From assembly GCF_048403405.1 (NCBI RefSeq), contig NZ_CP183129.1: a DNA stretch of 64,000 nt, one strand, 5' to 3'. Each line of letters starts with the position of its first letter. The first letter of the stretch is position 1. The notes beneath the pieces were generated by a model. It was given only the letters and a program-made list of their open reading frames with translations, was not told the DNA's origin and did no database searches. This DNA comes from Escherichia coli (GTDB lineage: Bacteria; Pseudomonadota; Gammaproteobacteria; Enterobacterales; Enterobacteriaceae). A program made the translations under genes and the position numbers. Positions 3,066 through 55,096 of this stretch are shown in pieces.

Positions 3066-3110
3066 TGTCGGACGTAGGTCGGATAAGGCGTTCTTGCCGC
3101 ATCTGACAAA
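3066..3110. repeat. REP-type palindromic unit
   Basis: GACGTAGGTCGGATAAGGCGTT...GCCGCATCTGAC matches the REP family motif (GCCGGATGCGGCG / CTTATCCGGCCTAC type) in the bamC-purC intergenic region. Confidence 0.6.
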
Positions 3111-7724: not shown

Positions 7725-7795
7725 AGCCGGGTAGGCCTGATAAGACCGTATCAGGCATCATGGCCGGATGCGGCGTTAACGCCTTATCCGGCCAC
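7725..7795. repeat. two adjacent REP units (BIME-like) between convergent ypfH and ypfN
   Basis: GCCTGATAAGACCGTATCAGGC followed by GGCCGGATGCGGCGTTAACGCCTTATCCGGCC; both are imperfect palindromes of the REP family. Confidence 0.75.
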
Positions 7796-37534: not shown

Positions 37535-38194
37535 ATGCCAGCTTTAGATTTGATTCGACCGTCGGTCACCGCCATGCGGGTGATTGCCTCTGTTAACGCC
37601 GAATTTGCGCGTGAACTGAAATTGCCGCCGCATATTCGTAGCCTCGGGCTGATTTCTGCTGATTCCGATGACGTCACCTACATTGCGGCTGACGAAGCGA
37701 CCAAGCAGGCGATGGTCGAAGTGGTGTATGGCCGCTCGCTGTATGCGGGAGCTGCACACGGACCGTCACCGACTGCCGGTGAAGTGCTGATTATGCTCGG
37801 TGGGCCAAACCCGGCGGAAGTGCGTGCTGGTCTGGATGCGATGGTTGCGCATATTGAAAATGGCGCGGCTTTCCAGTGGGCTAATGATGCGCAAGATACG
37901 GCATTCCTGGCACATGTAGTTTCGCGTACCGGTTCTTATCTCTCATCAACCGCCGGGATCACGCTTGGCGATCCGATGGCGTATCTGGTGGCACCGCCGC
38001 TGGAAGCGACCTATGGCATTGATGCAGCCCTGAAATCTGCCGACGTACAGCTGGTGACCTATGTCCCGCCACCGTCTGAAACCAACTACTCGGCAGCATT
38101 TTTAACCGGTAGCCAGGCAGCGTGTAAAGCAGCCTGTAACGCCTTTACCGATGCAGTGCTGGAAATCGCGCGTAATCCAATCCAGCGTGCGTAA
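37535..38194 (+). CDS. eutL: EutL, tandem-BMC-domain (trimeric) shell protein
   Basis: 219 aa. Confidence 0.9.
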
Positions 38195-38206
38195 CGGAGG
38201 TTGCCG

Positions 38207-38707
38207 ATGATCAATGCACTGGGATTGCTGGAAGTGGACGGCATGGTCGCCGCGCTAGATGCTGCGGATGCCATGCTCAAAGCAGCTAACGTTCGTCTGC
38301 TCAGTCACGAAGTGCTTGACCCTGGTCGCCTAACGCTGGTGGTGGAAGGCGATCTGGCGGCGTGTCGTGCGGCGCTGGACGCAGGTTGTGCTGCCGCGAT
38401 GCGTACCGGGCGTGTCATCAGCCGCAAGGAGATCGGTCGGCCAGACGATGACACCCAGTGGCTGGTTACTGGCTTTAACCGCCAGCCTAAGCAACCCGTA
38501 AAGGAACCCGACGCGCCAGTTATCGTCGCGGAATCTGCTGACGAGTTGTTGGCGCTGTTAACATCAGTACGTCAGGGAATGACGGCAGGAGAAGTGGCTG
38601 CCCACTTTGGCTGGCCGCTGGAAAAAGCCAGAAATGCGCTCGAACAGCTCTTTTCTGCCGGGACGTTACGTAAACGCAGTAGTCGTTATCGTCTCAAGCC
38701 CCATTAA
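38207..38707 (+). CDS. eutK: EutK, BMC shell protein with C-terminal helix-turn-helix-like extension
   Basis: ATG 38207: MINALGLLEVDGMVAALDAADAMLKAANVRLL... (166 aa). The track start is TTG at 38201. Confidence 0.88.
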   Translation: MINALGLLEVDGMVAALDAADAMLKAANVRLLSHEVLDPGRLTLVVEGDLAACRAALDAGCAAAMRTGRVISRKEIGRPDDDTQWLVTGFNRQPKQPVKEPDAPVIVAESADELLALLTSVRQGMTAGEVAAHFGWPLEKARNALEQLFSAGTLRKRSSRYRLKPH

Positions 38708-38752
38708 CCTGTCGGAGGTGCCGGGTGTCCTACAACACCCGGCATTAACATC

Positions 38753-39805
38753 ATGAAAAAGACCCGTACAGCCAATTTGCACCATCTTTATCATGAACCC
38801 TTACCCGAAAACCTGAAGCTCACGCCGAAGGTCGAAGTGGATAATGTTCATCAACGACAGACAACGGATGTCTATGAACATGCTTTGACAATTACCGCCT
38901 GGCAGCAGATTTACGATCAGCTGCATCCGGGCAAGTTTCATGGTGAATTTACGGAAATTCTACTCGATGATATTCAGGTTTTTCGTGAATACACCGGTCT
39001 GGCGCTGCGTCAGTCGTGCCTGGTCTGGCCGAATTCGTTCTGGTTTGGCATTCCGGCGACGCGCGGTGAGCAGGGATTTATCGGTTCGCAATGTCTGGGA
39101 AGCGCAGAAATAGCGACGCGCCCTGGTGGAACCGAGTTTGAATTAAGTACGCCGGATGATTACACGATCCTTGGCGTAGTGCTTTCTGAAGATGTCATCA
39201 CCCGTCAGGCTAACTTTTTGCATAATCCGGATCGGGTATTACATATGCTGCGTAGCCAGTCGGCGCTGGAAGTGAAAGAGCAGCATAAAGCCGCGCTGTG
39301 GGGCTTTGTCCAACAGGCGCTGGCGACATTTTGCGAGAACCCGGAAAATCTTCATCAGCCTGCTGTGCGTAAAGTGCTGGGGGATAATTTGCTAATGGCG
39401 ATGGGGGCGATGCTGGAAGAAGCGCAGCCAATGGTGACGGCGGAAAGCATCAGTCATCAGAGTTACCGTCGGTTGCTTTCCCGCGCCCGTGAATATGTGC
39501 TGGAAAACATGTCTGAGCCGGTGACTGTGCTGGACTTGTGTAATCAACTGCATGTCAGCCGCCGCACGCTACAAAACGCGTTTCACGCTATTTTAGGCAT
39601 TGGCCCAAATGCGTGGCTGAAACGCATTCGCCTGAACGCCGTACGCCGCGAACTGATAAGCCCTTGGTCGCAAAGCACAACGGTAAAAGACGCCGCCATG
39701 CAGTGGGGATTCTGGCATCTGGGGCAATTTGCCACGGATTACCAGCAGCTGTTTGCCGAGAAGCCGTCGTTGACGCTGCATCAGCGGATGCGGGAATGGG
39801 GGTGA
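38753..39805 (+). CDS. eutR: EutR, AraC-family activator of the eut operon
   Basis: 350 aa; C-terminal AraC HTH (region around [33 protein letters not shown]). Confidence 0.9.
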
Positions 39806-42718: not shown

Positions 42719-43294
42719 ATGAAATCGCTGCGTTTAATGTTATGCGCTATGCCGTTGATGCTGACCGGCTGTTCCACGATGTCGTCAGTTAACTGGTCTG
42801 CCGCTAACCCGTGGAACTGGTTTGGGTCGTCCACCAAAGTGAGCGAGCAGGGCGTTGGTGAATTAACGGCGTCCACACCACTGCAAGAACAAGCCATTGC
42901 CGATGCGCTTGATGGCGATTATCGCCTGCGCAGCGGAATGAAAACCGCGAACGGCAACGTGGTGCGCTTTTTTGAAGTGATGAAAGGCGACAACGTGGCG
43001 ATGGTGATTAACGGCGATCAGGGTACGATCAGCCGCATTGATGTGCTGGATAGCGATATTCCTGCTGACACCGGTGTTAAAATCGGTACACCGTTTAGCG
43101 ACCTTTACAGCAAAGCATTTGGCAATTGCCAAAAAGCTGATGGTGATGATAATCGTGCCGTCGAATGTAAAGCCGAAGGCAGTCAACATATTAGCTACCA
43201 GTTCAGCGGGGAATGGAGTGGTCCTGAAGGGTTAATGCCTTCAGACGATACCCTGAAAAACTGGAAAGTCAGTAAAATTATCTGGCGGCGTTAA
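42719..43294 (+). CDS. yfeY: outer-membrane lipoprotein YfeY
   Basis: 191 aa; lipobox LTGC in MKSLRLMLCAMPLMLTGCSTM. Confidence 0.82.
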   Translation: MKSLRLMLCAMPLMLTGCSTMSSVNWSAANPWNWFGSSTKVSEQGVGELTASTPLQEQAIADALDGDYRLRSGMKTANGNVVRFFEVMKGDNVAMVINGDQGTISRIDVLDSDIPADTGVKIGTPFSDLYSKAFGNCQKADGDDNRAVECKAEGSQHISYQFSGEWSGPEGLMPSDDTLKNWKVSKIIWRR

Positions 43295-47950: not shown

Positions 47951-48742
47951 ATGGGTAAACTCACGGGCAAGACAGCACTGATTACGGGCGCATTGCAGGG
48001 AATTGGCGAAGGAATTGCCAGAACTTTTGCGCGTCATGGCGCAAACCTAATCTTGCTGGATATCTCCCCTGAGATCGAAAAGCTGGCGGACGAACTGTGT
48101 GGTCGTGGTCATCGCTGTACGGCGGTTGTCGCCGATGTGCGTGACCCGGCGTCGGTCGCCGCAGCTATCAAGCGCGCGAAGGAAAAAGAAGGGCGCATTG
48201 ATATCCTGGTGAATAACGCAGGCGTTTGTCGTCTGGGCAGTTTCCTCGATATGAGCGATGAAGATCGCGATTTCCATATTGATATCAATATTAAAGGCGT
48301 ATGGAACGTCACGAAGGCGGTGCTGCCGGAGATGATTGCCCGCAAAGATGGCCGCATTGTGATGATGTCTTCGGTCACCGGCGATATGGTGGCGGACCCA
48401 GGTGAAACGGCGTATGCCTTAACGAAAGCGGCGATTGTTGGCCTGACTAAGTCGCTGGCGGTGGAGTACGCGCAGTCTGGTATTCGCGTTAACGCCATCT
48501 GCCCGGGATACGTTCGCACGCCAATGGCGGAAAGCATTGCCCGCCAGTCGAACCCGGAAGATCCAGAATCGGTGCTGACTGAAATGGCAAAAGCAATCCC
48601 GATGCGTCGCCTCGCCGATCCGCTGGAAGTCGGCGAACTGGCAGCCTTCCTCGCATCGGATGAATCAAGTTATTTAACCGGTACACAGAATGTGATTGAT
48701 GGCGGCAGCACACTGCCGGAGACGGTTAGCGTCGGCATTTGA
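47951..48742 (+). CDS. ucpA: short-chain dehydrogenase/reductase UcpA
   Basis: ATG 47951: MGKLTGKTALITGALQGIGEGIA... (263 aa), SDR Rossmann motif. Confidence 0.9.
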   Translation: MGKLTGKTALITGALQGIGEGIARTFARHGANLILLDISPEIEKLADELCGRGHRCTAVVADVRDPASVAAAIKRAKEKEGRIDILVNNAGVCRLGSFLDMSDEDRDFHIDINIKGVWNVTKAVLPEMIARKDGRIVMMSSVTGDMVADPGETAYALTKAAIVGLTKSLAVEYAQSGIRVNAICPGYVRTPMAESIARQSNPEDPESVLTEMAKAIPMRRLADPLEVGELAAFLASDESSYLTGTQNVIDGGSTLPETVSVGI

Positions 48743-48754
48743 TTCACCTCTGTT

Positions 48755-48787
48755 TCCTCCCTGCATTTGTGGGGAGGATTTCGTCTT
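48755..48787 (+). terminator. candidate terminator after ucpA
   Basis: TCCTCCC-10 nt loop-GGGAGGA followed by TTTCGTCTT; U-tract is weak. Confidence 0.5.
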
Positions 48788-48912
48788 GAACCCGGTTCTT
48801 ATTCCCTTTTCAACTTCCAAATCACCAAACGGTATATAAAACCGTTACTCCTTTCACGTCCGTTATAAATATGATGGCTCTTAGAAAGTCATTAAATTTA
48901 TAAGGGTGCGCA

Positions 48913-49929
48913 ATGGCCGTTAACTTACTGAAAAAGAACTCACTCGCGCTGGTCGCTTCTCTGCTGCTGGCGGGCCATGTACAGGCAACGGAACTGCTGA
49001 ACAGTTCTTATGACGTCTCCCGCGAGCTGTTTGCCGCCCTGAACCCGCCGTTTGAGCAACAATGGGCCAAAGATAACGGCGGCGACAAACTGACGATAAA
49101 ACAATCTCATGCCGGGTCATCAAAACAGGCGCTGGCGATTTTGCAGGGCTTAAAAGCCGACGTTGTCACTTATAACCAGGTGACTGACGTACAAATCCTG
49201 CACGACAAAGGCAAGCTGATCCCGGCCGACTGGCAAACGCGCCTGCCGAATAACAGCTCTCCGTTCTACTCCACCATGGGTTTCCTGGTGCGTAAGGGCA
49301 ACCCGAAAAATATCCACGACTGGAACGATCTGGTGCGCTCCGACGTGAAGCTGATTTTCCCGAACCCGAAAACGTCGGGTAACGCACGTTACACCTATCT
49401 GGCGGCATGGGGTGCAGCGGATAAAGCTGACGGTGGCGACAAAGCCAAAACCGAACAGTTTATGACCCAGTTCCTGAAAAACGTTGAAGTGTTCGATACC
49501 GGTGGCCGTGGCGCGACCACCACCTTTGCCGAGCGCGGGCTGGGCGATGTGCTGATTAGCTTCGAATCGGAAGTGAACAACATCCGCAAACAGTATGAAG
49601 CGCAGGGCTTTGAAGTGGTGATTCCGAAAACCAACATTCTGGCGGAATTCCCGGTGGCGTGGGTCGATAAAAACGTGCAGGCCAACGGTACGGAAAAAGC
49701 AGCAAAAGCCTACCTGAACTGGCTCTACAGCCCGCAGGCGCAGACCATCATCACCGACTATTACTACCGCGTAAATAACCCGGAAGTCATGGACAAACTG
49801 AAAGACAAATTCCCGCAGACCGAACTGTTCCGCGTGGAAGACAAATTTGGCTCCTGGCCGGAAGTGATGAAAACCCACTTCACCAGCGGCGGCGAGTTAG
49901 ACAAGCTGTTAGCGGCGGGGCGTAATTAA
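48913..49929 (+). CDS. cysP: periplasmic thiosulfate-binding protein
   Basis: 338 aa with signal peptide ([25 protein letters not shown]). Confidence 0.93.
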
Positions 49930-50762
49930 TGTTTGCAGTTTCATCAAGACGCGTGCTGCCGGGCTTTACCTTAAGCCTCGGCACCAGTCTGCTGTTTGTG
50001 TGCCTGATTTTGCTGCTGCCGCTCTCCGCGCTGGTGATGCAGCTGGCTCAGATGAGCTGGGCGCAGTACTGGGAGGTGATCACCAACCCACAAGTGGTCG
50101 CGGCCTACAAAGTGACGCTGCTGTCAGCGTTTGTCGCGTCGATTTTTAACGGCGTTTTCGGTTTGCTGATGGCGTGGATCTTAACCCGCTATCGCTTTCC
50201 GGGCCGCACGCTGCTTGATGCGCTGATGGATTTACCCTTTGCGCTGCCAACGGCAGTCGCCGGTTTGACGCTGGCCTCGCTCTTTTCCGTGAACGGTTTT
50301 TACGGTGAATGGCTGGCGAAGTTTGATATCAAAGTCACCTATACCTGGCTGGGGATTGCGGTGGCGATGGCCTTTACCAGCATTCCGTTTGTGGTGCGTA
50401 CCGTGCAGCCGGTGCTGGAAGAGTTAGGCCCGGAATATGAAGAAGCGGCGGAAACGCTCGGCGCAACGCGCTGGCAGAGTTTCTGCAAAGTGGTGCTGCC
50501 GGAGCTATCTCCGGCGCTGGTGGCGGGCGTGGCGCTGTCGTTTACCCGTAGTCTTGGTGAATTTGGCGCGGTGATTTTTATCGCCGGGAACATCGCCTGG
50601 AAGACAGAAGTGACGTCGCTGATGATTTTTGTTCGCTTACAGGAGTTTGATTACCCGGCGGCGAGCGCGATTGCTTCGGTGATCCTCGCGGCATCCCTGC
50701 TGCTGCTGTTCTCAATTAACACTCTGCAAAGTCGCTTTGGTCGGCGTGTGGTAGGTCATTAA
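49929..50762 (+). CDS. cysU: sulfate/thiosulfate ABC transporter permease CysU (CysT)
   Basis: 277 aa permease; start overlaps the cysP stop. Confidence 0.92.
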   Translation: MFAVSSRRVLPGFTLSLGTSLLFVCLILLLPLSALVMQLAQMSWAQYWEVITNPQVVAAYKVTLLSAFVASIFNGVFGLLMAWILTRYRFPGRTLLDALMDLPFALPTAVAGLTLASLFSVNGFYGEWLAKFDIKVTYTWLGIAVAMAFTSIPFVVRTVQPVLEELGPEYEEAAETLGATRWQSFCKVVLPELSPALVAGVALSFTRSLGEFGAVIFIAGNIAWKTEVTSLMIFVRLQEFDYPAASAIASVILAASLLLLFSINTLQSRFGRRVVGH

Positions 50763-51637
50763 TGGCGGAAGTGACACAGTTGAAGCGTTATGACGCGCGC
50801 CCGATTAACTGGGGCAAATGGTTTCTGATTGGCATCGGGATGCTGGTTTCGGCGTTCATCCTGCTGGTGCCGATGATTTACATCTTTGTGCAGGCGTTCA
50901 GTAAAGGGCTGATGCCAGTTTTACAGAATCTGGCCGATCCGGACATGCTGCACGCCATCTGGCTGACGGTGATGATTGCGCTGATTGCCGTGCCGGTGAA
51001 CCTGGTGTTCGGCATTCTGCTGGCATGGCTGGTGACGCGCTTTAACTTCCCCGGACGCCAGTTGCTGCTGACGCTGCTGGACATTCCGTTTGCCGTGTCG
51101 CCGGTGGTTGCCGGTCTGGTGTATCTGCTGTTTTACGGCTCTAACGGCCCGCTCGGCGGCTGGCTGGATGAACATAATCTGCAAATTATGTTCTCCTGGC
51201 CGGGAATGGTGCTGGTCACCATCTTCGTGACGTGTCCGTTTGTGGTGCGTGAGCTGGTGCCGGTGATGTTAAGCCAGGGCAGCCAGGAAGACGAAGCGGC
51301 GATTTTGCTGGGCGCATCTGGCTGGCAGATGTTTCGCCGCGTCACGCTGCCGAACATCCGCTGGGCGCTGCTTTATGGCGTGGTGCTGACCAACGCCCGC
51401 GCGATTGGCGAGTTTGGTGCGGTGTCGGTGGTTTCCGGCTCGATTCGCGGCGAAACACTTTCGCTGCCGTTACAGATTGAATTGCTGGAGCAAGACTACA
51501 ACACCGTCGGCTCCTTTACCGCTGCCGCGTTGTTGACGCTGATGGCGATTATCACCCTGTTTTTAAAGAGTATGTTGCAGTGGCGTCTGGAGAATCAGGA
51601 AAAACGCGCGCAGCAGGAGGAACATCATGAGCATTGA
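50762..51637 (+). CDS. cysW: sulfate/thiosulfate ABC transporter permease CysW
   Basis: 291 aa permease; start overlaps the cysU stop. Confidence 0.92.
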
Positions 51638-52724
51638 GATTGCCAATATTAAGAAGTCTTTTGGTCGCACCCAGGTGCTGAACGATATCTCACTGGATAT
51701 TCCTTCTGGTCAGATGGTCGCGTTGCTGGGGCCGTCCGGTTCCGGGAAAACCACGCTGCTGCGCATTATCGCCGGGCTGGAGCATCAAACCAGCGGGCAT
51801 ATTCGCTTCCACGGCACCGACGTCAGCCGCCTGCATGCGCGCGATCGTAAAGTTGGTTTCGTGTTCCAGCACTATGCGCTGTTCCGCCATATGACGGTGT
51901 TCGACAATATCGCTTTCGGCCTGACGGTGCTGCCGCGTCGCGAGCGCCCGAATGCCGCAGCCATCAAAGCGAAAGTGACAAAATTGCTGGAGATGGTGCA
52001 GCTTGCGCATCTGGCGGATCGTTATCCGGCACAGCTTTCCGGCGGGCAGAAACAGCGCGTGGCGCTGGCGCGTGCGCTCGCTGTGGAACCGCAAATTCTG
52101 CTGCTTGATGAACCGTTTGGCGCGCTGGATGCGCAGGTGCGTAAAGAGCTGCGTCGCTGGCTGCGTCAGTTACATGAAGAGCTGAAATTCACCAGCGTGT
52201 TTGTGACCCATGACCAGGAAGAAGCGACCGAAGTAGCCGATCGTGTAGTGGTGATGAGCCAGGGCAATATCGAGCAGGCTGATGCACCGGACCAGGTATG
52301 GCGCGAACCAGCGACCCGTTTTGTACTCGAATTTATGGGCGAAGTGAACCGCCTGCAGGGAACCATTCGCGGCGGGCAGTTCCATGTTGGCGCGCATCGC
52401 TGGCCGCTGGGCTATACACCTGCGTATCAGGGGCCGGTGGATCTCTTCCTTCGTCCGTGGGAAGTGGATATCAGCCGCCGTACCAGCCTCGATTCGCCGC
52501 TGCCGGTACAGGTACTGGAAGCCAGCCCGAAAGGCCACTACACCCAATTAGTTGTGCAGCCGCTGGGGTGGTACAACGAACCGCTGACGGTTGTGATGCA
52601 TGGCGACGATGCCCCGCAGCGTGGCGAGCGTTTATTCGTTGGTCTGCAACATGCGCGGCTGTATAACGGCGACGAGCGTATTGAAACCCGCGATGAGGAA
52701 CTTGCTCTCGCACAAAGCGCCTGA
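51627..52724 (+). CDS. cysA: sulfate/thiosulfate ABC transporter ATP-binding protein
   Basis: 365 aa; Walker [13 protein letters not shown] signature LSGGQKQR. Confidence 0.93.
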
Positions 52725-52745
52725 TAGGTTGAGTGAATGTTAAAC

Positions 52746-52778
52746 GCCCGGAGGCGCTTCCCGCGATCCGGGCTTTTT
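52746..52778 (+). terminator. terminator-like hairpin between cysA and cysM
   Basis: GCCCGGA-14 nt loop-TCCGGGC followed by TTTTT, 22 bp after the cysA stop. Confidence 0.6.
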
Positions 52779-52802
52779 AATGGCAAGGTTTGTAACCTGT
52801 AG

Positions 52803-52834
52803 GCCTGATAAGACGCGCAAGCGTCGCATCAGGC
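52803..52834. repeat. REP-type palindromic unit upstream of cysM
   Basis: GCCTGATAAGACGCGCAAGCGTCGCATCAGGC, an imperfect REP-family palindrome. Confidence 0.65.
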
Positions 52835-52857
52835 AACACCACGTATGGACAGAGATC

Positions 52858-53769
52858 GTGAGTACATTAGAACAAACAATTGGCAATACGCCTCTGGTGA
52901 AGTTGCAGCGAATGGGGCCGAATAACGGCAGTGAAATCTGGTTGAAACTGGAAGGCAATAACCCGGCAGGTTCGGTGAAAGATCGTGCGGCGCTTTCGAT
53001 GATCGTCGAGGCGGAAAAGCGCGGGGAAATTAAACCGGGTGATGTGTTAATCGAAGCCACCAGTGGTAACACCGGCATTGCGCTGGCAATGATTGCCGCG
53101 CTTAAAGGCTATCGCATGAAATTGCTGATGCCCGACAACATGAGCCAGGAACGCCGTGCGGCGATGCGTGCTTATGGTGCGGAACTGATTCTTGTCACCA
53201 AAGAGCAGGGCATGGAAGGTGCGCGCGATCTGGCGCTGGAGATGGCGAATCGTGGCGAAGGAAAGCTGCTCGATCAGTTCAATAATCCCGATAACCCTTA
53301 CGCCCATTACACCACTACCGGGCCGGAAATCTGGCAGCAAACTGGCGGGCGCATTACCCATTTTGTCTCCAGCATGGGAACAACCGGCACCATCACCGGC
53401 GTGTCACGCTTTATGCGCGAACAATCCAAACCGGTGACCATTGTCGGCCTGCAACCGGAAGAGGGCAGCAGCATTCCCGGCATTCGCCGCTGGCCTGCGG
53501 AATATCTGCCGGGGATTTTCAACGCTTCGCTGGTGGATGAGGTGCTGGATATTCATCAGAGCGATGCGGAAAACACCATGCGTGAACTGGCGGTGCGGGA
53601 AGGAATATTCTGTGGCGTTAGCTCCGGCGGCGCGGTTGCCGGAGCACTGCGCGTGGCAAAAGCTAACCCCGGCGCGGTGGTTGTGGCGATCATCTGCGAT
53701 CGCGGCGATCGCTACCTCTCCACCGGCGTGTTTGGGGAAGAACACTTTAGCCAGGGGGCGGGGATTTAA
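52858..53769 (+). CDS. cysM: cysteine synthase B (O-acetylserine sulfhydrylase B)
   Basis: GTG start 52858: (M)STLEQTIGNTPLVKLQRMGP... (303 aa), PLP enzyme; the track ORF from 52780 runs through the REP/terminator and is unlikely to be translated. Confidence 0.9.
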   Translation: MSTLEQTIGNTPLVKLQRMGPNNGSEIWLKLEGNNPAGSVKDRAALSMIVEAEKRGEIKPGDVLIEATSGNTGIALAMIAALKGYRMKLLMPDNMSQERRAAMRAYGAELILVTKEQGMEGARDLALEMANRGEGKLLDQFNNPDNPYAHYTTTGPEIWQQTGGRITHFVSSMGTTGTITGVSRFMREQSKPVTIVGLQPEEGSSIPGIRRWPAEYLPGIFNASLVDEVLDIHQSDAENTMRELAVREGIFCGVSSGGAVAGALRVAKANPGAVVVAIICDRGDRYLSTGVFGEEHFSQGAGI

Positions 53770-53771
53770 GA

Positions 53772-54231
<460 letters not shown>

Positions 54232-54244
54232 GAGAAAAAATTAA

Positions 54245-55096
54245 ATGAGTAGTTTGTTGTTGTTTAACGATAAGAGCAGGGCATTGCAGGCGGATATCGT
54301 CGCCGTGCAGTCGCAGGTAGTGTACGGCAGCGTAGGCAACAGCATTGCGGTGCCTGCTATAAAACAGAACGGCTTGAATGTCTTTGCCGTGCCGACTGTA
54401 TTGCTGAGCAATACACCGCATTATGACACTTTCTACGGTGGTGCGATTCCGGACGAATGGTTTAGCGGCTATTTGCGTGCGCTTCAGGAGCGTGATGCGC
54501 TGCGCCAACTTCAAGCAGTAACCACGGGCTATATGGGAACGGCATCGCAAATCAAAATCCTTGCCGAGTGGCTGATTGCGCTACGCAAAGACCATCCTGA
54601 CTTATTGATTATGGTCGATCCGGTGATTGGCGATATTGATAGCGGAATTTATGTCAAACCTGACCTTCCCGAGGCATATCGACAATATTTACTGCCTCTG
54701 GCGCAGGGAATTACGCCAAATATCTTTGAGCTGGAAATTCTGACAGGTAAAAATTGCCGCGATCTCGACAGCGCCATTGCTGCCGCAAAAAGTCTGCTTT
54801 CAGACACATTAAAATGGGTGGTGATTACCAGCGCCTCCGGTAACGAAGAAAATCAGGAGATGCAGGTGGTGGTGGTCAGTGCCGACAGCGCGAATGTTAT
54901 TTCCCATTCTCGGGTAAAAACGGACCTTAAAGGAACAGGAGATCTGTTTTGCGCCCAGCTTATCAGTGGCTTGTTGAAAGGTAAGAAATTAACTGACGCG
55001 GTACATAGCGCGGGATTACGCGTGCTGGAGGTGATGCGCTATACCCAGCAGCATGGCAGTGATGAATTGATTTTGCCGCCCCTGACGGAAGCATAA
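54245..55096 (+). CDS. pdxK: pyridoxal/pyridoxine/pyridoxamine kinase
   Basis: 283 aa, [33 protein letters not shown]...; ribokinase-like fold. Confidence 0.92.

Follow-up and report, generated by a model that had tools for sequence, protein, structure and literature searches.

A terminator-like hairpin, an inserted REP element and a weak GTG initiation region between cysA and cysM in the cysPUWAM cluster of Escherichia coli

The window, a stretch of 64,000 nucleotides of Escherichia coli DNA (contig NZ_CP183129.1), contains the genes cysPUWAM. The transporter genes overlap one another (cysP/cysU and cysU/cysW by 1 nt each, cysW/cysA by 11 nt) and cysM alone is set apart. The last transporter gene, cysA (51627–52724, plus strand), was delimited from the list of open reading frames and from the PGAP annotation of strain CFSAN018748, which is 100% identical to the window over a 401-bp query around the junction. 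It is followed by a spacer of 133 nt (52725–52857, plus strand), the sole real gap in the cluster, and then by cysM (52858–53769, plus strand), which in the PGAP and K-12 annotations encodes O-acetylserine sulfhydrylase B, a protein of 303 amino acid residues with a GTG start codon at 52858–52860. In K-12 MG1655 the gap between cysA (b2422) and cysM (b2421) is equally long and differs from the window by two SNPs; the genes lie on the K-12 minus strand, where a position equals 2592441 minus the window coordinate. At least 80% of the length of the 401-bp query was matched in 5,420 of the 5,426 complete E. coli genomes. An identity of at least 99% over the 401 bp was reached in just 198 of 5,434 records, which marks the sequence as a minority allele. 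The CysM allele of the strain shares 98.0% identity with K-12 CysM over 303 amino acids, the differences including D22N and V26I.

Twenty-one nucleotides past the cysA stop codon begins a GC-rich, terminator-like stem-loop (52746–52773, plus strand; GCCCGGAGGCGCUUCCCGCGAUCCGGGC). It consists of a 7-bp lower stem, a 2x1 internal loop, a 3-bp upper stem and a 5-nt loop, with a folding energy of -17.7 kcal/mol (z = -2.8 vs dinucleotide shuffles). A T5 tract (52774–52778, plus strand; UUUUUAAU in the RNA) with a T-score of 3.88 follows directly 3' of the hairpin, and the 3' ends predicted for it correspond to K-12 positions 2539663–2539667 on the minus strand. Scored together with a d'Aubenton-Carafa-type function using ViennaRNA energies, in which positive values are terminator-like, hairpin and T5 tract reached +14.6. 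The element has the make-up of an intrinsic terminator, a GC-rich stem-loop and then a U-run, qualified by the shortness of the U-run and by the internal loop in the stem. A terminator scan, which requires an unbroken stem of at least 5 pairs and a loop of 3–8 nt, missed the hairpin because the 2x1 internal loop divides the stem into 7 + 3 pairs. E. coli has one copy of the hairpin, and 4,757 of 5,427 E. coli records (88%) are identical over the 53-nt hairpin region. Variants among six aligned E. coli strains are located in the loops or change the closing G-C pair to G-U; in DETEC-E480 and E. albertii the closing C of the hairpin is replaced by T, extending the T-run to 6. An Rfam scan of 52400–53100 at E ≤ 10 returned no regulatory RNA family, the matches being sub-threshold naRNA4/REP and two chance snoRNA matches alone. 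Entries for cysA or cysM were not found in the supplements of E. coli 3'-end and operon-mapping studies (eLife 2021 Term-seq, TERMITe, SMRT-Cappable-seq), possibly owing to low cys expression, and full-text literature searches on the two genes and terminators, REPs or 3'-end methods returned nothing specific to the junction.

Downstream of the T-tract lies a single REP of the Z-type (52799–52834, minus strand; GTAGGCCTGATAAGACGCGCAAGCGTCGCATCAGGC), the REP175 of K-12, in the canonical orientation GCCTGATGCGACGC...CTTATCAGGCCTAC. The sense RNA of REP175 forms a 7+5-bp hairpin of -21.9 kcal/mol (z = -6.0 vs shuffles). On the minus strand, positions 52799–52839 match the classical REP consensus (GCC[G/T]GATGCG[A/G]CG...CG[C/T]CTTATC[A/C]GGCCTAC, an imperfect palindrome of ~35 nt including the GTAG/CTAC tail) with 0 substitutions. 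The match in Rfam to naRNA4, a family built on REP325, is partial and sub-threshold. As is expected of a multi-copy extragenic element, the 401-bp query had a median of 6 hits in each genome owing to the REP. REP175 is listed in the supplement of the 2026 REP study as 'Tandem, cysA|cysM' at K-12 2539608–2539643, equivalent to window positions 52798–52833; the K-12 RefSeq feature table shows no repeat feature at cysA-cysM. E. coli and E. albertii carry a single REP at this site and hence no BIME, which comprises at least two REPs in alternating orientation.

Alignment with REP-less relatives identified the REP as part of a lineage-specific insertion of 65 nt (52784–52848, plus strand), flanked by the 4-nt direct repeat ATGG (52780–52783 and 52845–52848). 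An insertion at this site, which separates the T-run from the ribosome-binding region and measures 65 nt in E. coli, is shared by E. coli, E. albertii and Pseudocitrobacter faecalis, and is absent in the aligned sequences of Citrobacter, Lelliottia and Enterobacter sp. Bisph1. Its removal in silico leaves a hairpin-to-GTG distance of 19 nt. Within E. coli the REP is polymorphic, with sequence differences and indels among six strains. As judged by these alignments, the REP is a later add-on in the Escherichia/Pseudocitrobacter lineage that stands outside the conserved design. Pseudocitrobacter faecalis has two REPs at the same site, a Y-type and a Z-type in a BIME-like arrangement, the Z-type being inverted relative to E. 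coli. The near identity of the P. faecalis spacer, together with its inverted Z-type REP, implies a replacement or inversion of the REP or an exchange between lineages. A further observation concerns a fragment bound by Rho in vitro, with and without NusG, that abuts REP175 (K-12 2539385–2539613, plus strand; window ~52828–53056, minus strand). Its position antisense to the 5' end of cysM suggests that an antisense transcript is terminated by Rho in this region.

The GTG codon at 52858 is located exactly 80 nt past the last T of the T-tract. An ATG codon at 52780 lies in frame with it, 26 codons upstream, and would give a CysM of 329 amino acids with an N-terminal extension of 26 residues. The ORF from this ATG (52780–53769) is the longest one and begins with ATG, and its frame stays open in K-12 and E. 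albertii as well as in the window. Its extension (MARFVTCRPDKTRKRRIRQHHVWTEI; 52780–52857, plus strand) is spurious, being a translation of the REP. In three of six aligned E. coli strains a 1-nt indel between ATG and GTG puts the ATG out of frame, namely an extra T in GGTTTG (region of 52792) in two strains and an extra G in the REP loop (region of 52819) in one. The ATG lacks a Shine-Dalgarno sequence and abuts the T-tract of the putative terminator. Comparison with other species points the same way. The sample comprised 80 loci, with Salmonella, typical Klebsiella and Shigella not among them, and the comparison used 57 Enterobacterales loci in which cysA is directly upstream of cysM. Most of the 57 are without any in-frame start codon upstream of the GTG, and about a dozen have a stop that shuts the upstream frame within 1–5 codons. 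The homologous start codon is GTG in 54 and TTG in two; the remaining locus is offset in the alignment and likewise ends in GTG.

Protein data concur with this assignment. A GTG start is annotated in every E. coli record inspected, including PGAP and K-12, and the structures of CysM from E. coli (PDB: 2BHS, 2BHT and 2V03) and Salmonella (PDB: 2JC3) are 303-residue chains from the GTG start. When the 329-aa ORF was compared with 2BHS (E-value 4e-198), query residues 28–329 aligned on chain residues 2–303; distant cysteine synthases align from residues 19–32 of the ORF, mostly from 26–32. The product is identified as CysM by homology over its full length from the GTG. GTG 52858 is the true start of cysM, and a start at ATG 52780 can be dismissed with near certainty. 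The preliminary description of this DNA had recorded a hairpin with a T5 tract followed by a REP between cysA and cysM, with a cysM start at a GTG 80 bp later, and all of these were recovered exactly where it had placed them. It had also suspected that the ORF starting at 52780 reads through the REP from a false start, a suspicion borne out by the indels, the homologues and the missing Shine-Dalgarno sequence. The case matters mostly as one of annotation hygiene: calling the longest ORF (ATG 52780, 329 aa) gives the wrong start, and as a general rule ORFs that run through a REP and border on a terminator T-tract should be trimmed.

The translation signals of cysM are poor. A weak Shine-Dalgarno-like GGA (52847–52849, plus strand) is present 8 nt ahead of the GTG. 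The duplex with the anti-Shine-Dalgarno sequence, calculated for the 22 nt before the start, reaches -3.0 kcal/mol for cysM vs -6.2 to -10.3 for cysP, cysU, cysW and cysA. Across the 57 species the median for cysM is -3.8. The GTG and the poor Shine-Dalgarno sequence are as conserved as the hairpin, and both features point to a low CysM output compared with the transporter. A small hairpin that might sequester the GTG (52838–52863) was also considered and dropped, as it was no better than shuffles (z -0.18).

Conservation of the terminator-like element was assessed in the cysA-cysM spacers of 55 species, in each of which the best hairpin with a T-run was compared with dinucleotide-preserving shuffles of the same spacers. 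The hairpin and T-run score d exceeded 0 in 42 of the 55 spacers vs 1.8% of the shuffles, and exceeded 10 in 38 of them vs 0.2% of the shuffles; it was below 0 in 13 species. A terminator-like signal is hence conserved at the orthologous site. The E. coli hairpin is homologous to the hairpin in Citrobacter and Lelliottia, and its 6-bp lower stem is invariant among the closest relatives, leaving no covariation there to count for or against the structure. Across the order the conserved stems fall into at least seven unrelated sequence types, among them GCCCGG in Escherichia and Citrobacter, GCGGCC in Cedecea, Siccibacter and Shimwellia, GGGCGGG in Pantoea, GGCAACC in Serratia, TGCTCATCTC in Photorhabdus, CAGCCTGG in Tatumella and CAGGCGGCC in Acerihabitans. 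Since the stems of different genera are unrelated, the signal was kept while its sequence turned over. Dickeya, Pectobacterium and Brenneria have no cysA in front of cysM, and the linkage and the hairpin are thus not universal in the order.

Several stems of this site resemble repeats. The terminator stem of Citrobacter reads GCCCGGTGGCGC..GCTTACCGGGC, and T6 comes after it. Citrobacter, Enterobacter and relatives have as their stem a REP-like palindrome, GCCSGGTGGCGC..GCTTACCSGGC, with a T-run behind it; this Enterobacter-type palindrome is either solitary, with a T-run, or part of an inverted pair with the T-run on the second copy. In Enterobacter, Pluralibacter, Pseudescherichia and others, the palindrome has a CTAC tail of the REP type and forms an inverted pair. 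E. coli genomes contain ~5 BLAST-detectable copies of the Enterobacter-type palindrome each. The cysA-cysM hairpin of E. coli can be aligned with this palindrome, yet is now unique. These resemblances are suggestive of a REP-derived origin of the conserved terminator in the Escherichia/Citrobacter/Enterobacter clade. A more far-reaching reading, in which the site is a conditionally regulated attenuator kept across Enterobacterales and REP-family palindromes were repeatedly recruited as its stem, is speculative and in our view very unlikely. If it were true, the terminator would be an Enterobacter-type REP with a T-run in Citrobacter and Enterobacter and a diverged copy of it in E. coli, and read-through regulated by the sulfur source, anaerobiosis or an elongation/termination factor would set the ratio of CysM, which serves the thiosulfate route, to the transporter.

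How cysM is transcribed bears on the role of the hairpin. In the REP-less Citrobacter, Lelliottia and Enterobacter sp. Bisph1 the hairpin-to-GTG distance is 19–20 nt and the T-run nearly adjoins the ribosome-binding region; therefore no promoter fits there. A promoter farther upstream would still transcribe through the hairpin, so that read-through would be needed for cysM. A scan with the sigma-70 consensus detected no promoter-like site in 48500–54500, and none was recognized by eye in the spacer. The literature is divided, with cysPUWAM treated as one polycistronic unit (PMC3082872) and cysPUWA and cysM listed as separate operons (PMC4705995). We infer that cysM is most simply made by polymerases passing the hairpin, which would act as a leaky terminator or attenuator and not as the end of the operon. 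For the hairpin to be the real end of a cysPUWA operon, cysM would have to be transcribed independently, from a promoter of its own within the spacer or close to it. Besides the listing as separate operons, the species in which cysM is not beside cysA (Dickeya, Pectobacterium and Brenneria) indicate that the gene can be expressed alone. Such a promoter is hard to reconcile with the 19–20 nt available in the REP-less relatives, with the lack of a sigma-70-like site in 48500–54500 and with the description of a single polycistronic unit, and one within cysA would still read through the hairpin. An independent cysM unit is highly improbable.

Another explanation regards the hairpin mainly as an RNA-decay barrier, with transcription essentially unimpeded. 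The structure, in E. coli together with the REP, would block 3'-to-5' exonucleases after downstream cleavage, and the cysPUWA segments would outlast the cysM segments, as at malE-malF. Both structures are stable enough for such a role (-17.7 and -21.9 kcal/mol), and REPs are documented as upstream stabilisers (PMC4705995; bioRxiv 10.64898/2026.03.23.713779). The U-tract is moreover short, and termination might be negligible because it has only 5 U and the stem is interrupted. T-runs of 5–8 are a hallmark of intrinsic termination. The T-run right after the stem is conserved across genera, and an exonuclease barrier alone needs none. A barrier that leaves transcription untouched is for this reason unlikely, although the barrier and terminator roles are not mutually exclusive. 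A third proposal makes the REP, not the hairpin, the main regulator in E. coli, as a partly Rho-dependent attenuator and stabiliser. It draws on REP325 in yjdMN, reported as a dual attenuator and stabiliser, and on the upstream-biased expression of tandem gene pairs containing canonical REPs (both bioRxiv 10.64898/2026.03.23.713779). The canonical sequence and strong hairpin of REP175 accord with this proposal, and REP175 is among the REPs tabulated as overlapping with fragments that bind Rho in vitro. The listed fragments, however, are on the strand antisense to cysM, and constructs with a single REP or with 2–4 REP hairpins gave no clear Rho dependence (bioRxiv 10.64898/2026.03.23.713779). 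In addition, most genera that retain the hairpin lack the REP, which varies in sequence and by indels within E. coli. A leading role of the REP is distinctly unlikely.

The explanation that we favour, and hold to be likely, is that a conserved leaky intrinsic terminator, the GTG start and the weak Shine-Dalgarno sequence damp CysM relative to CysPUWA, the REP being a later add-on. The cysA-cysM spacer would then damp the synthesis of CysM in three layers within the cysPUWAM transcription unit, which CysB controls. In the first layer, the moderately strong hairpin and its U5 would end a fraction of the transcripts, and the hairpin at the resulting 3' end would shield the cysPUWA mRNA from 3' exonucleases. 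In the second, all cysM mRNA would come from polymerases that read through, since the distance from the hairpin to the start codon leaves no space for a separate promoter. In the third, translation would proceed from a conserved poor initiation region consisting of the GTG and the weak GGA Shine-Dalgarno sequence. REP175 would be present only on the read-through RNA, where it may add upstream stabilisation or Rho-assisted attenuation like other intra-operon REPs. Partial termination at the hairpin in vivo, the size of its effect and any effect of the REP are predictions of this scheme. The preliminary description had ascribed an uncoupling of cysM from the transporter genes to attenuation or to an mRNA-stabilising structure. 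That proposal gains from the hairpin and T-run, conserved despite complete turnover of the stem sequence, and from the 19–20 nt spacing, with the qualification that the REP is lineage-specific and not a part of the conserved design. The support for such an uncoupling is indirect but fairly strong.

Both leaky internal terminators and intercistronic REPs are textbook means of expressing the genes of one operon at different levels. Leaky internal intrinsic terminators set operon stoichiometry, for example in rpsU-dnaG-rpoD and at the attenuators of rplKAJL-rpoBC. The cysA-cysM junction shares with them a GC hairpin and U-run between cistrons, a downstream gene that relies on read-through and a downstream product that is needed less; it differs in that its termination is predicted from the sequence and no regulatory factor is known. 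The REPs of malE-malF are reportedly the classical stabiliser, said to have been described by Newbury et al. in 1987 as the basis of differential expression within malEFG. As at cysA-cysM, an intercistronic palindrome in a transporter operon is proposed there to raise the ratio of upstream to downstream expression. At malE-malF, in contrast, the REPs are the only structure and a U-tract terminator is missing, and at cysA-cysM the upstream product is an ABC ATPase and the downstream product an enzyme. The malEF genes are also mentioned in PMC4705995. REP325 in yjdMN similarly separates two genes that share an operon and an orientation, and higher upstream expression is expected in both cases. 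It is an array of ~12 hairpins whose Rho dependence was seen only with the full array (bioRxiv 10.64898/2026.03.23.713779), whereas cysA-cysM has a single REP downstream of a separate hairpin and U-tract, which are the conserved element. Lastly, the 'REP RITs' REPt42, REPt127 and REPt285 are REPs that double as Rho-independent terminators (bioRxiv 10.64898/2026.03.23.713779). The stem at cysA-cysM in Citrobacter and Enterobacter is likewise a REP-like palindrome with a T-run, of which the E. coli hairpin is the diverged homologue. Unlike the REP RITs, the E. coli hairpin is single copy and no longer recognisable as a repeat, and the canonical REP175 is without a U-tract.

The arrangement is an ordinary and largely known one that probably keeps the output of CysM below that of the sulfate transporter. 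According to PMC3528435, CysM is the minor cysteine synthase and uses thiosulfate; a lower output than that of the transporter subunits is plausible for this reason. The GTG start is already the database annotation and the REP a catalogued element. The sole increment is the order-wide retention of the hairpin and T-run, the GTG and the weak Shine-Dalgarno sequence, together with the recognition of the REP as a late insertion, both from sequence comparison. The retention of the hairpin merits a line in a survey of operon architecture and not a study of its own. The locus may serve as a clean example of a gene inside an operon that is expressed below its neighbours by stacked weak signals, that is, a leaky terminator, a GTG and a poor Shine-Dalgarno sequence.

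Some minor features of the window were recorded alongside. The convergent genes cysM and yfeK end 2 nt apart (53769–53772), and a terminator does not fit between them. K-12 carries yfeS and REP174 (K-12 2538536–2538633) at the cysM/yfeK junction, both of which are missing in this strain. Upstream, the gene eutR (~38052–39175) is a frameshifted pseudogene by the annotation of the identical strain, and an IS200C transposase gene is located between yfeY and yfeX (~42817–43275). The consensus search yielded two more REP-like elements, both of the Y-type, at 3074–3108 and 7755–7795.
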